DNA of 5,876 nt from a virus (lineage: Duplodnaviria > Heunggongvirae > Uroviricota > Caudoviricetes), in the IMG/VR virus record IMGVR_UViG_3300028481_000068; one strand, 5' to 3'. Numbering within the stretch: the stretch's first letter is position 1; every line of letters starts with the position of its first letter. The translations under genes were made by a program, and so were the position numbers. The notes beneath the pieces are model-generated. The model made no database searches. It had not been told where the DNA came from and was given only the letters and a program-made list of their open reading frames with translations. This document shows positions 1,769 through 5,854 of the stretch, in pieces.

Positions 1769-1783
1769 TTACCGTTGAGGTAA
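1769..1783. promoter_or_regulatory. Operator-like dyad TTACC-GTTGA-GGTAA, abutting the -10 of the leftward early promoter
   Basis: Perfect 5+5 inverted-repeat half-sites with a 5-bp spacer. Member of an eight-copy family confined to intergenic regions. Confidence 0.6.
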
Positions 1784-1811
1784 TAATTATGCGTATATGG
1801 TTTGATGTCAA
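1783..1811 (-). promoter_or_regulatory. Putative leftward early promoter (pL-like): -35 TTGACA, 17-bp spacer, -10 AATTAT
   Basis: Minus-strand TTGACA at 1811-1806 and AATTAT at 1788-1783. The -10 overlaps the first base of operator 1769-1783, and a second operator lies 19 bp upstream of the -35. Hexamers were chosen by eye and the -10 is a weak match. Confidence 0.4.
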
Positions 1812-1830
1812 TAGATATGAGTTAAAAAAA

Positions 1831-1845
1831 TTACCCGTTAGGTAA
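1831..1845. promoter_or_regulatory. Operator-like dyad TTACC-CGTTA-GGTAA, upstream of the leftward promoter
   Basis: Perfect half-sites. Centre-to-centre distance to site 1769-1783 is 62 bp. Confidence 0.6.
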
Positions 1846-1902: not shown

Positions 1903-2487
1903 TTATTGTTTGTTTTTTTCGTTTTGGTTGATGACAAATTCAATGTAACTTTCGATCTTTGCTTTCTCGGTTTCGGGTAACAATGCGTAGCGCGAGCGAT
2001 CATAGTTGATGGTCGCAGGGTCGTGCGGGTGAATCAGTAATTCATAGCCGTGACGCCCGAATGCGGATGCAACATTCTCCAGGGTGGAAATGGAAACGCT
2101 GACCTCATTGTTTAACAGGCGGCTGATTGTCACCTGGGCGACGCCGGATGCGCGGTGTAGTTTTCCCTGCGTTGAAAGGTCGCGGCTTTCGCTCATCCAG
2201 CGTTCCAGGTTGTGAGCCGCCAGCTGACCAATGTCGCTTGGTCCGACAGGCTGAAAACCTTCCTGAGAAAGCGAGCGATCGATATCAAGCCAGTTACGGG
2301 GTTTATTGGCGGCAGCTTCAATTTTTCGCGCAACCTGGTCGCCGATAACCTTCTTGCCAAGAGCCCAGCGGTTTACCAGATTTGCCTGAGTTCCAAGTTT
2401 TTCTGCCATCCGCGTCTGAACACCATTGAATTCACGGTCGATCAAGTCGTTGAGATTTTGCCTGCGGACGTCCTGGATACTTTTCAT
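1903..2487 (-). CDS. Phage repressor-like DNA-binding protein with two XRE-type HTH segments and no recognisable LexA/S24-type autocleavage domain, 194 aa
   Basis: ORF-track protein. HTH-like segments QTRMAEKLGTQANLVNRW and GVAQVTISRLLNNEVSVSISTLENVASAF. I see no Ser/Lys peptidase-like C-terminal domain. It is divergent from the Cro-like gene, with shared operators in the 154-bp intergenic region. Confidence 0.7.
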   Translation of the reverse strand: MKSIQDVRRQNLNDLIDREFNGVQTRMAEKLGTQANLVNRWALGKKVIGDQVARKIEAAANKPRNWLDIDRSLSQEGFQPVGPSDIGQLAAHNLERWMSESRDLSTQGKLHRASGVAQVTISRLLNNEVSVSISTLENVASAFGRHGYELLIHPHDPATINYDRSRYALLPETEKAKIESYIEFVINQNEKNKQ

Positions 2488-3238: not shown

Positions 3239-4054
3239 ATGAGCAGACATGCAACAGATTGGGCCTGGGAGACAGATCCAGGCAGCTCATCATTAAAGCT
3301 CATACTGCTCTCGATGGCTGACAGAGCCGATGAATATAACCTCTGCTACCCCAGCATAGAACGCCTCGTTAAAGACACTTGTCTGAATAAAAAAACCGTG
3401 CAGGCCGGACTTATATCGCTCATGAAAATGGGGCTTATTTCAGATACCGGAGAGAGAAAGGGAGCGACGAAAAGAGTGCGGGTTTTCTCTCTTAATATAA
3501 CCAAAAAAGGGAACATTAAAGGCAACCTAGAAGGACGTAATGAACCCGAAAACGGTAATGTTCCCGAAAACGGGAATATACCCAAAAACGGGATGTTGAA
3601 TGATCCCAAAAACGGGATGTTGAATGATCCCAAAAACGGGATCCAGAACCAGTCATATAACCAGTCATTTAACCAAGAGAGGGAGAGCAGGACAAAAACC
3701 GGGGATTCTGTGCCTCATGACCCCGGCGCAAACAACGCCGTGATGAATAACTTTGTTCCTCCTGGTGGGCCAGGGCAATTAGGCAAATTTGTCATGCATG
3801 AACAATGGCAGCCATCAGATGACTTTCTTCGGAAAAGCTCATTGCAGGGGATCTACCTGGACAGTATGCCAACGGCACAGGAACTTGCAGAGTTCAGAAT
3901 TTACTGGATGGCTGAGGGTAAGGCATACCATCAGGCACAGTGGGAGCAGAAGCTGGCAAGGCGGCTGCAGATTAGCAGACAGAAGCAATCAACATTACCT
4001 GATAACAACGTTCCGCACTGGAACAGCCCTGAAGCATGGGAGGATTTCTTGTGA
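3239..4054 (+). CDS. Replication initiator, lambda O-like: N-terminal HTH origin-binding domain, repetitive linker, C-terminal domain of the DnaT/O type; 271 aa
   Basis: ORF-track protein. SD GGAG lies 7 nt upstream of the ATG. The linker NGNVPENGNIPKNGMLNDPKNGMLNDPKNG is encoded by the iteron array, as with ori inside lambda O. It lies immediately upstream of, and overlaps, the P-like gene. Domain names are from memory. Confidence 0.75.
   Translation: MSRHATDWAWETDPGSSSLKLILLSMADRADEYNLCYPSIERLVKDTCLNKKTVQAGLISLMKMGLISDTGERKGATKRVRVFSLNITKKGNIKGNLEGRNEPENGNVPENGNIPKNGMLNDPKNGMLNDPKNGIQNQSYNQSFNQERESRTKTGDSVPHDPGANNAVMNNFVPPGGPGQLGKFVMHEQWQPSDDFLRKSSLQGIYLDSMPTAQELAEFRIYWMAEGKAYHQAQWEQKLARRLQISRQKQSTLPDNNVPHWNSPEAWEDFL
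3545..3645. repeat. Iteron array: five direct repeats of core CCC(G/A)AAAACGG(G/T)A at 18-, 18-, 24- and 24-bp spacing; putative origin of replication
   Basis: Copies start at 3545, 3563, 3581, 3605 and 3629. Copies 3 and 4 are identical over 24 bp. Each core carries a CCCG/CGGG dyad around an A-tract. Followed by the tandem AACCAGTCAT(A/T)T x2 (3647-3670). Located inside the O-like coding sequence. Confidence 0.75.
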
Positions 4055-4836
4055 ACAACGTTTTTACCGCGATACAAAACCGTGACGGAGAAGCCCTTTC
4101 TCGCATGTCAGGTTATGAGCATCAGTACACTAACAATGACAACGTGGTGAACATGTCAGCAGAGAGGCTTGTTGATGCCCTTTTCAAACAGTTGAAACAA
4201 CTGTTTCCGGCGGCAGTGGTAACCAACCTGAAGACGCCAGAGCAGGAAGTTGCTGCAAAACAGCAGTGGATTGCTGCGTTTGCCGAAGGGGGGATCCGAA
4301 CCCGTGAACAGGTTTCTGCTGGTATGCGCCACGCCCGCGCCAGTGAATCTCCGTTCTGGCCGTCGCCAGGGCAATTTATCAAGTGGTGCAAAGACAGCAA
4401 GATGGTTCTTGGCGTCACCATTGACGATGTGATGGCGGAGTTTCACCGGTACAGCAAGGAAAAAAGTTTATATCCTGGTGGTCCCGAAAGATTCCCGTGG
4501 CGGCATCCGGTTATGTACTGGGTCGTATGTGATACCCGCCGTGCAATGTATCAGCGCCAGCTTAGCGAGATTGAGGTTGAGAAACACGCGCGCAGGATGC
4601 TCGATGATTGGGCGAAAAAGGTGGCTTCCGGACAGCAGATACCCGATCCGGTGATCAGCATACAGGCAAAGCCAGAGCCCATGAGTACACCTCCGGACAC
4701 AGGGAGAGACGTTTACCATCCACCAGGGCGAAGTTTCGGGTGTATGCCTAACGCCGCCACCCTGGGGGGAATAACACCGGCGCAGTGGCTGATGGAGGAA
4801 TACAGGCGGGGAAAGGCGTCAGGATTTATCAAGTAA
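4051..4836 (+). CDS. Replication protein P-like (replicative helicase loader), 261 aa
   Basis: The segment AAKQQWIAAFAEGGIRTREQVSAGMRHARASESPFWPSPGQFIKWCKD matches my recollection of lambda P (...RRQWVLAFRENGITTMEQVNAGMRVARRQNRPFLPSPGQFVAWCRE...). I chose the GTG start at 4051: GGGAGGA lies 6 nt upstream and it overlaps the O-like stop (GTGA). The ORF-track ATG at 4036 is an alternative. Confidence 0.85.
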   Translation: MNNVFTAIQNRDGEALSRMSGYEHQYTNNDNVVNMSAERLVDALFKQLKQLFPAAVVTNLKTPEQEVAAKQQWIAAFAEGGIRTREQVSAGMRHARASESPFWPSPGQFIKWCKDSKMVLGVTIDDVMAEFHRYSKEKSLYPGGPERFPWRHPVMYWVVCDTRRAMYQRQLSEIEVEKHARRMLDDWAKKVASGQQIPDPVISIQAKPEPMSTPPDTGRDVYHPPGRSFGCMPNAATLGGITPAQWLMEEYRRGKASGFIK

Positions 4837-4841
4837 TACCA

Positions 4842-4861
4842 GCGCGATAGCGCATTTTTTT
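4842..4861 (+). terminator. Possible weak intrinsic terminator after the P-like gene
   Basis: GCGC-GATA-GCGC, only a 4-bp stem, followed by a run of seven T (4855-4861). Confidence 0.3.
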
Positions 4862-4873
4862 ACGTCTCGATAA

Positions 4874-4888
4874 TTACCTGTTGGGTAA
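4874..4888. promoter_or_regulatory. Operator-like dyad TTACC-TGTTG-GGTAA, upstream of the third promoter
   Basis: Perfect half-sites, 19 bp upstream of the -35 TTGATT. Confidence 0.6.
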
Positions 4889-4907
4889 TAAAGTGTTCTA
4901 AAATCTA

Positions 4908-4936
4908 TTGATTTCGTGTCTTATGTGGTTTTTAAT
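4908..4936 (+). promoter_or_regulatory. Putative rightward promoter downstream of the replication module: -35 TTGATT, 17-bp spacer, -10 TTTAAT
   Basis: Hexamers at 4908-4913 and 4931-4936, flanked by operator sites at 4874-4888 and 4936-4950. The spacing is identical to the pL-like module (operator, 19 bp, -35, 17 bp, -10 overlapping the second operator by 1 nt). Confidence 0.45.
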
Positions 4937-4950
4937 TACCTCAGGGGTAA
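4936..4950. promoter_or_regulatory. Operator-like dyad TTACC-TCAGG-GGTAA overlapping the -10 and the 5' leader of ORF 4954
   Basis: Perfect half-sites, ending 3 nt before ATG 4954. Confidence 0.6.
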
Positions 4951-4953
4951 ATC

Positions 4954-5298
4954 ATGAGAAAACAGATACAGGCTCTTGGTCGACTCAAAACAGGCCAGAT
5001 GAACAAAACAGAATCTGCGTATTGCCAGCACCTTGAGCTGCGTAAACGTGCAGGAGAAATCGCCTGGTATCGATTCGAGGGTATCAAGCTGCGGTTAGCT
5101 GACAACACGTTCTATACGCCCGATTTTGCTGTGATGCTCGCCACCGGCGAGATGGAACTGCACGAAGTGAAAGGTTTCTGGACCGACGACGCCAGGGTGA
5201 AAACCAAAGTCGCTGCAGATCAGTATCCGTTCAGAATCATCGGGGTAACTGTTAAGCCAAAGAAAGCAGGTGGTGGCTGGAACATCGAAGAGTTCTGA
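4954..5298 (+). CDS. Small PD-(D/E)XK-fold nuclease-like phage protein, 114 aa (possibly DUF1064-type)
   Basis: ORF-track protein with FYTPDFAV ... MELHEVKG, which fits a PD ... E-x-K motif. First gene downstream of the operator-flanked promoter. DUF1064 naming is from memory and unverified. Confidence 0.6.
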   Translation: MRKQIQALGRLKTGQMNKTESAYCQHLELRKRAGEIAWYRFEGIKLRLADNTFYTPDFAVMLATGEMELHEVKGFWTDDARVKTKVAADQYPFRIIGVTVKPKKAGGGWNIEEF

Positions 5299-5338
5299 AT
5301 CGACGATCTTTTTAGTTATCAATGTAATCAATAAGTTA

Positions 5339-5347
5339 TGTGGATAA
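5339..5347 (-). promoter_or_regulatory. Perfect DnaA-box consensus TTATCCACA (minus strand)
   Basis: Plus strand reads tgtggataa at 5339-5347, 13 bp upstream of ATG 5360 and abutting its SD. A single 9-mer may be chance. Confidence 0.25.
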
Positions 5348-5359
5348 GCGAGGGTAAAG

Positions 5360-5854
5360 ATGGAAAGTAATATCAAAGGGTTAGTTTCCGCCGGGCATGA
5401 GATGGCTTCGGAACTGAAAGCAGAATGTGGTGCCGTTGATATGCGCAGTGTGGCAAAGCTGATCAGCGATTTGGCAACGCAACTGGAAGTGCAACTGGTG
5501 CGTGCTAATGCGCTGGCCGAAGACCAACAGAAAGCGATTGAGTCAATTAAGCAGGCTGATGCGGCTGTTAAGTTGGCACACGAGAAGTTTTCAGCGCTGG
5601 CGGCGGAGAATGCAAAGCTGAAGAAGTTCTGCAAAGACGCTGCATTCGATGCCGATTACGAAGCAGAGCTAGGTATGGAGAGAGGTGGATTCAGTGATGC
5701 ACTTAACGAAATCAAAACCCCGGCCACCGACGCATTCCTGGCTGAAGTGCGGGCGCAGGGGGTAGAGATGTTTGCTGACCATCTGTTGTGCCCAGACCTT
5801 GATGACACTATCCGTGACTTTGCTGCCCAGCTTCGCAAAGGAGGCAACCAGTGA
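5360..5854 (+). CDS. Hypothetical coiled-coil phage protein, 164 aa
   Basis: ORF-track protein. SD GAGGG lies 5 nt upstream of the ATG. Ala/Glu/Lys-rich central region (ALAEDQQKAIESIKQADAAVKLAHEKFSALAAENAKLKK) suggests a coiled coil. No family recognised. Confidence 0.5.
   Translation: MESNIKGLVSAGHEMASELKAECGAVDMRSVAKLISDLATQLEVQLVRANALAEDQQKAIESIKQADAAVKLAHEKFSALAAENAKLKKFCKDAAFDADYEAELGMERGGFSDALNEIKTPATDAFLAEVRAQGVEMFADHLLCPDLDDTIRDFAAQLRKGGNQ

Follow-up and report, generated by a model that had tools for sequence, protein, structure and literature searches.

The gene at positions 4954-5298 (plus strand) raises the question of what its small product does for the phage that carries it, and of how its expression is controlled. 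The original prediction had described an open reading frame (ORF) of 114 amino acids at this position, and translation of the window (the whole 5,876-nucleotide stretch of DNA analyzed here) bears out the coordinates and the length of the product and shows an ATG start codon.

Phage Type and Gene Order

The 5.9-kb window comprises the immunity and early region of a temperate podovirus of the phiV10/epsilon15 type (genus Uetakevirus). Genes on the minus strand comprise a RecE-like PD-(D/E)XK exonuclease, two small ORFs, and a repressor (1903-2487). Those on the plus strand comprise, in order, a cro-like gene, a small gene, a DnaT/O-like initiator, a lambda-P-like helicase loader, the gene of interest (hereafter the DUF1064 gene), and an Eae-like gene (5360-5854). 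The last two are separated by a conserved plus-strand spacer (5299-5359) that is near-identical in epsilon15. Over positions 4800-5400, identity is 95-97% with phiV10, TL-2011b, vB_EcoP_ZX5, and their relatives, and ~83% with the Salmonella phages SPN1S/SPC32H and with Enterobacter phage BUCT554. At least 80% of the window was found in 361 of 5426 complete Escherichia coli genomes.

On the minus strand, an ORF of 179 aa with a TTG start codon (5095-5634) runs antisense to the 3' end of the DUF1064 gene and to part of the Eae-like gene; it is probably a side effect of how the sense genes are composed. Further upstream, the O/DnaT-like initiator gene contains tandem repeats at 3537-3675, in 18-bp units (3.1 copies), 12-bp units (2.4 copies), and perfect 24-bp units (2.6 copies; CCCAAAAACGGGATGTTGAATGAT). 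These repeats look like origin iterons positioned inside an initiator gene, in a lambda-like arrangement.

Family, Fold, and Active Site

The 114-aa protein was assigned to the Pfam family DUF1064 (PF06356) with a score of 31.0 bits relative to a gathering cut-off of 24.7 (E = 3.7e-7; residues 18-92). Its database homologs likewise carry PF06356, and the protein itself matched phrog_190 at 7e-43. The DUF1064 family comprises 4659 representatives at 50% identity (E <= 0.001). NCBIfam provided no family for the protein, and the RuvC model did not match it in the Pfam scan. Kosinski et al. (2005; PMC1189080) placed DUF1064 among the PD-(D/E)XK nucleases by prediction, and Steczkiewicz et al. (2012; PMC3424549) later described the family as being of unknown function and as co-occurring with RecT, DnaB/C, and SSB. 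A literature search revealed biochemical work on none of the DUF1064 members, and the papers that name the family are bioinformatic.

The active-site motif of PD-(D/E)XK enzymes (E ... PD ... (D/E)xK) is present in the 114-aa protein. A catalytic triad had been proposed in TPDF (residues 55-58; D57) and HEVK (residues 70-73; E71 and K73). In an alignment of 50 family representatives (47-68% identity), D57 was invariant, as were E20, G74, and K85, and E71 and K73 were at least 90% conserved. The acidic residue E20, which the original prediction overlooked, completes a predicted catalytic site composed of E20, D57, E71, and K73.

An AlphaFold2 model computed with the alignment of 50 representatives as input (pLDDT 92.2, pTM 0.82) shows an alpha-beta-beta-beta-alpha-beta core, which is the PD-(D/E)XK nuclease fold. 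Foldseek comparison with viral models (BFVD) recovered 'Endonuclease I-like' proteins and an Endonuclease I of the T7 group, and comparison with the PDB gave weak matches (best E = 4.7e-3). T7 endonuclease I itself was absent from the fold-search matches of the 114-aa protein, a likely reason being the extended shape of its chain, which is one half of a domain-swapped dimer. The T7 enzyme is a domain-swapped dimer, and a monomer model cannot reveal such a swap. Structure prediction and fold comparison return the nuclease fold that had been claimed for this protein, and we predict the product to be a compact, metal-dependent, structure-specific PD-(D/E)XK endonuclease.

Relationship to T7 Endonuclease I and Other Resolvases

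T7 endonuclease I, the gene 3 product of T7 (PDB 1M0D, 1FZR, 2PFJ) and a Holliday-junction resolving enzyme, was the top sequence match in the PDB, both with the single sequence (E = 0.22) and with the profile (E = 0.032). Alignment to T7 gene 3 with hhalign returned a probability of 94.4% (E = 8.8e-8, 85 columns) and paired E20, D57, E71, and K73 of the query with E20, D55, E65, and K67 of the T7 enzyme, the residues of its established catalytic tetrad. The conserved D/E/K triad is in this way placed on the T7 active site, as is E20. Common to both proteins are YTPDF, E-x-KG, and a subsequent W..D.R.K helix. The proposed homology to T7 endonuclease I is distant and rests on sequence profiles, and the 114-aa protein had no match to Pfam Phage_endo_I (PF05367) at E <= 0.01. 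The two proteins differ in length, the T7 enzyme being longer (149 aa), and in setting, in that T7 endonuclease I belongs to a lytic phage whereas the 114-aa protein belongs to a temperate phage and is repressor-controlled.

The phiV10 protein PhiV10p45 (PF06356; phrog_190) is 98% identical to the 114-aa protein and is encoded at the same place after the P-like gene. There is no material difference between the two, and the gene in the window is another copy of an annotated protein. Archaeal Hjc/Hje resolvases (PDB 1GEF, 2WCW, 1OB8, 1HH1) share 10-14% identity with it and gave no sequence-level match.

The characterized resolvase G44P of phage SPP1 was considered as a potential DUF1064 protein and rejected, as SPP1 gene 44 has no DUF1064 match. 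G44P is described as RusA-like (PMC3485210), and membership of the 114-aa protein in the RusA family was likewise rejected, given a BLASTP E-value of 1.1 against SPP1 gene 44, which amounts to no similarity. Since G44P is not a DUF1064 protein, the PHROG label 'Holliday junction resolvase' is not traceable to experiment.

Operators and Repressor

The motif TTACC-N5-GGTAA, with at most one mismatch, occurs seven times in the window relative to 0.13 expected, and none of 200 shuffled sequences reached seven. Matches start at 1769 and 1831 (PL), 2543 and 2591 (PR/PRM), 2928, 4874, and 4936. Both sites near the DUF1064 gene, a distal operator at 4874-4888 (TTACCTGTTGGGTAA) and a proximal operator at 4936-4950 (TTACCTCAGGGGTAA), match the motif perfectly, and their centers are 62 bp apart, which is the spacing of the PL pair (1769/1831). 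The proximal operator overlaps the end of a -10-like hexamer, the point where transcription is likely to start, and AGGGG (4943-4947), which is the Shine-Dalgarno sequence, and ends three bases upstream of the ATG at 4954. No operator site with two or fewer mismatches was found inside or downstream of the DUF1064 gene. The gene had been described as tightly bracketed by operators, and this description does not hold: both local sites are upstream of the ATG and therefore flank a promoter-like -35/-10 pair (4908-4913 and 4931-4936) rather than the gene. Apart from this operator geometry, the earlier observation is real and its interpretation is essentially correct.

The operators are presumed to be bound by the repressor encoded at 1903-2487 (minus strand), which has two helix-turn-helix regions (HTH_3 and YdaS-type) and is devoid of a peptidase domain of the LexA/S24 cleavage type. 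Over its full length, this protein is homologous to the SPC32H repressor (PDB 5D50; E = 4e-42). In summary form, a later paper presents SPC32H Rep as acting in tetrameric form, with an antirepressor taking the tetramer apart (PMC9638917). Given this homology and the lack of a cleavage domain, induction would be expected to proceed via an antirepressor. The closest known regulatory system is the Rep/operator immunity of SPC32H and epsilon15. In epsilon15, TTACC-N5-GGTAA is annotated as repressor-binding, including once before the slot that the DUF1064 gene occupies in the window; of the two sites at this promoter, the epsilon15 record marks the equivalent of the distal operator ('protein_bind: repressor').

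Additional operator-like sequences were observed in the window and in related phages. A weaker, third site (GCACCCCATAGGTAA, two mismatches) lies at 2560-2574, flanked by the OR pair and spaced 17 bp from the site at 2543, and SPN1S and BUCT711 have perfect sites at the equivalent spacing. Outside of its immunity region, phiV10 has perfect motifs near the small terminase gene, before head genes, and upstream of a Bro-N antirepressor-like gene that it encodes (downstream of PhiV10p24), at 87-101, 3252-3266, and 20497-20511; the first 30 kb of this genome contains three perfect motifs relative to 0.03 expected. Similar sites precede the terminase gene in BUCT554 (8740-8774 of locus L004) and Kp4865-1 (8440-8535 of locus L006). 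The repressor regulon may extend to late genes and to the antirepressor gene.

The Putative Promoter Cassette Ahead of the DUF1064 Gene

The P-like gene is followed by a weak intrinsic terminator (4842-4861, plus strand) that consists of a GCGC/GCGC stem, a 4-nt loop, and seven T, with a predicted RNA folding energy of -8.4 kcal/mol (z = -2.8). Its 4-bp GC stem falls below the threshold of five pairs used by the terminator scan tool. The phiV10 record lists the equivalent element as a putative rho-independent terminator. Beyond it, a -35-like hexamer, TTGATT (4908-4913, plus strand), begins 19 nt past the distal operator, as does TTGACA at PL, and is followed after a 17-nt spacer by a -10-like hexamer, TTTAAT (4931-4936, plus strand), that we assign by position. 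Counterparts of the latter in relatives are TTAAAT or ATAAAT/TATAAA.

The PL cassette (1769-1845, minus strand) has operators at 1769-1783 and 1831-1845 around TTGACA-17-AATTAT, and was called as a promoter by the scan tool. When reverse-complemented (1850-1745) and compared to 4869-4974, it yields 56 identities in 106 ungapped positions, with the operators, the -35 hexamers (TTGACA/TTGATT), and the -10 hexamers (AATTAT/TTTAAT) in a single register. We then compared the cassette among six phages picked for their similar proteins and not for the motif (the phage of the window, phiV10, SPN1S, BUCT554, BUCT711, and Kp4865-1). The upstream hairpin and T-run, the four operator half-sites, the sequence CTATTGA, and an A/T-rich -10 region were invariant in all six, with the hairpin of BUCT711 having one extra C-G pair; the five-base operator centers and the spacers vary. 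The half-sites were identical across all relatives that were retrieved. In a larger set drawn from IMG/VR (see below), all 61 distinct DUF1064-type cassettes and 18 RuvC-type cassettes among the matches listed have TTGA(T/A)N at -35, TTGA having been a selection filter.

An alternative is that there is no promoter at these operators and that transcription of the replication operon upstream simply continues into the DUF1064 gene (read-through), with the sites functioning as a roadblock or as auxiliaries for looping or cooperativity. The promoter scan made no call here because the -10 hexamer does not have the consensus A at position 2, which the tool requires, and a search by eye for alternative hexamers or an extended -10 nearby revealed nothing better. 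This poor -10, the short stem of the upstream terminator, and the tetrameric state given for Rep in summary (PMC9638917), which would allow extra sites to serve in looping, are all compatible with read-through. We nevertheless consider it unlikely. The layout copies a bona fide PL in register, down to the TTGA of the -35 and the 17-nt spacer, and both this TTGA and the A/T-rich -10 are conserved in six phages that were selected by protein similarity. Moreover, a conserved terminator lies immediately upstream, and the proximal operator is located at the expected start site. Taken as a promoter under direct repression, the element is very probably real, and we infer promoter activity and Rep binding. 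By the same reading of the sequence, it is plausible that the DUF1064 gene would be expressed only on derepression.

The original prediction ranked this as the third promoter of the window. Its directly repressed layout is supported by the PL-like register and by conservation, and the rank may be an undercount. A strong terminator (2894-2913) follows the cro-like gene, and is itself followed by an operator-like site at 2928-2942 (GTACCTCAAAGGTAA, one mismatch), 17 nt, and the element TTGATC-17-CAAAAT (2960-2988), which precedes the small gene and the replication genes. An imperfect operator is present at the position equivalent to 2928 in phiV10, BUCT554, BUCT711, and Kp4865-1. The interval 2928-2988 may be a further repressor-controlled promoter, in which case the promoter of the DUF1064 gene would be the fourth.

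Replacement by a RuvC-Like Gene in the Same Slot

Epsilon15 has in common with the window the terminator, the operator pair, the promoter, CTATTGA, the 'GGTAAATCATG' junction, and the ribosome-binding region, and the ORF that occupies the slot in this phage encodes a RuvC-like Holliday-junction resolvase (Pfam RuvC E = 1.2e-5; so annotated). This protein, gp43, has an unrelated fold (RNase H-like RuvC) and is an analog of the 114-aa protein by position rather than a homolog. In epsilon15, the RuvC-like gene is succeeded by nearly the same sequence as the spacer at 5299-5359, with an annotated IHF site, and it is at this spacer that an ORF-for-ORF swap has its right-hand boundary.

To survey the slot, IMG/VR was scanned for operator pairs spaced by 62 bp, and the first ORF behind correctly oriented promoters was classified among the matches listed. 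At least 72 such promoters directly precede a DUF1064 gene, at least one precedes a small ORF and then a DUF1064 gene, and at least 18 precede a RuvC-like gene; the rest of the matches listed are PL units. The slot in the viral contigs listed therefore contains DUF1064 in at least 73 cases and RuvC in at least 18. Among named complete phage genomes, those listed for the DUF1064 protein search and those listed for the RuvC-like protein search do not overlap, and the annotation of phiV10 includes no other resolvase.

The small ORF in the exceptional contig (L069, 7348-7700) encodes roughly 75-100 aa and separates the DUF1064 gene from the operator-flanked promoter, indicating that the DUF1064 protein is not always the first product. 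A third type of gene in the slot was considered for Salmonella phage VB_ST_SPNIS2 (L129, 1498-2000) and rejected, as this is a frame-disrupted slot of the RuvC type. Its ATG is followed by a stop after seven codons, and tblastn detected 41% identity in pieces, such that the RuvC-like gene is either a pseudogene or affected by a sequencing error.

The original prediction had proposed a role in recombination or resolution among its candidate functions, and this role gains support from the genomic context, in that epsilon15-type relatives have a RuvC-like resolvase in exactly this slot. The natural swap between DUF1064 and RuvC genes, as read from genome comparison, is the best evidence for function.

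Function of the DUF1064 Product

Together, the swap with RuvC and the relationship to T7 endonuclease I make a junction-resolving or debranching nuclease of the phage the best reading of the DUF1064 product, and we regard this as its probable function. It is from these comparisons that we infer nuclease activity and junction specificity. Lambdoid phages likewise place resolvases (Rap, RusA) just downstream of replication genes. In a lysogen, Rep of the SPC32H type would occupy both operators, 62 bp apart, and shut the promoter between them. Once Rep is inactivated, the DUF1064 gene would be transcribed as the first gene of a unit that starts past the weak terminator. The predicted nuclease would then clear branched intermediates that arise from replication and from the RecE/RecT-type recombination genes of the phage, prior to packaging.

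The product could instead be a general or differently targeted nuclease that breaks down host DNA for nucleotides, attacks competing DNA, or acts in counter-defence. This is improbable: among the matches listed, the sole replacement in the same regulatory slot is a dedicated RuvC-type resolvase, the protein of solved structure that comes nearest in sequence resolves junctions, and the PADLOC defence models gave no match to the 114-aa protein.

A different suggestion, also present in the original prediction, is that the gene is repressed because its product is toxic to the lysogen. Uncontrolled structure-specific nucleases can, as a matter of general plausibility, harm replicating chromosomes, and the operator does overlap the start site. 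The same motif, however, marks PL, PR, a site ahead of the replication genes, and another three sites in phiV10, which suggests that direct repression is the general design of the phage and is not special to the DUF1064 gene. Nothing points specifically to toxicity, and we consider this explanation very unlikely. Least likely of all is a catalytically dead DNA-binding protein that has retained the nuclease fold, since although inactive PD-(D/E)XK domains such as that of RecC are known in the superfamily (PMC3424549), divergent homologs show little or no variation at the four catalytic positions, which align with the active site of T7 endonuclease I.

Significance of the Findings

The DUF1064 gene in the window is an ordinary, catalogued gene for a small predicted phage nuclease from a common E. 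coli prophage of the phiV10/epsilon15 type. Its novelty is low because the fold assignment dates from 2005 and because a repressor site is already annotated at this slot in the epsilon15 record. As a near-identical copy of annotated DUF1064 genes, it changes little for the field. The by-product of the analysis is a concrete, testable function for a very large family of 'unknown function', with thousands of representatives. Within an identical regulatory cassette, the swap between DUF1064 and RuvC argues that DUF1064 is the junction resolvase of the phage. A broader proposal, which we judge to be evenly balanced between true and false, is that DUF1064 proteins constitute a large class of minimal Holliday-junction resolvases that resemble T7 endonuclease I, belong to temperate phages, and are interchangeable with RuvC in function, and that in Uetakeviruses they are expressed from a reusable operator-promoter-operator cassette whose two sites, spaced by 62 bp, may both be held by one Rep tetramer. 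If the resolvase role is true, thousands of phage and prophage genes could be re-annotated.
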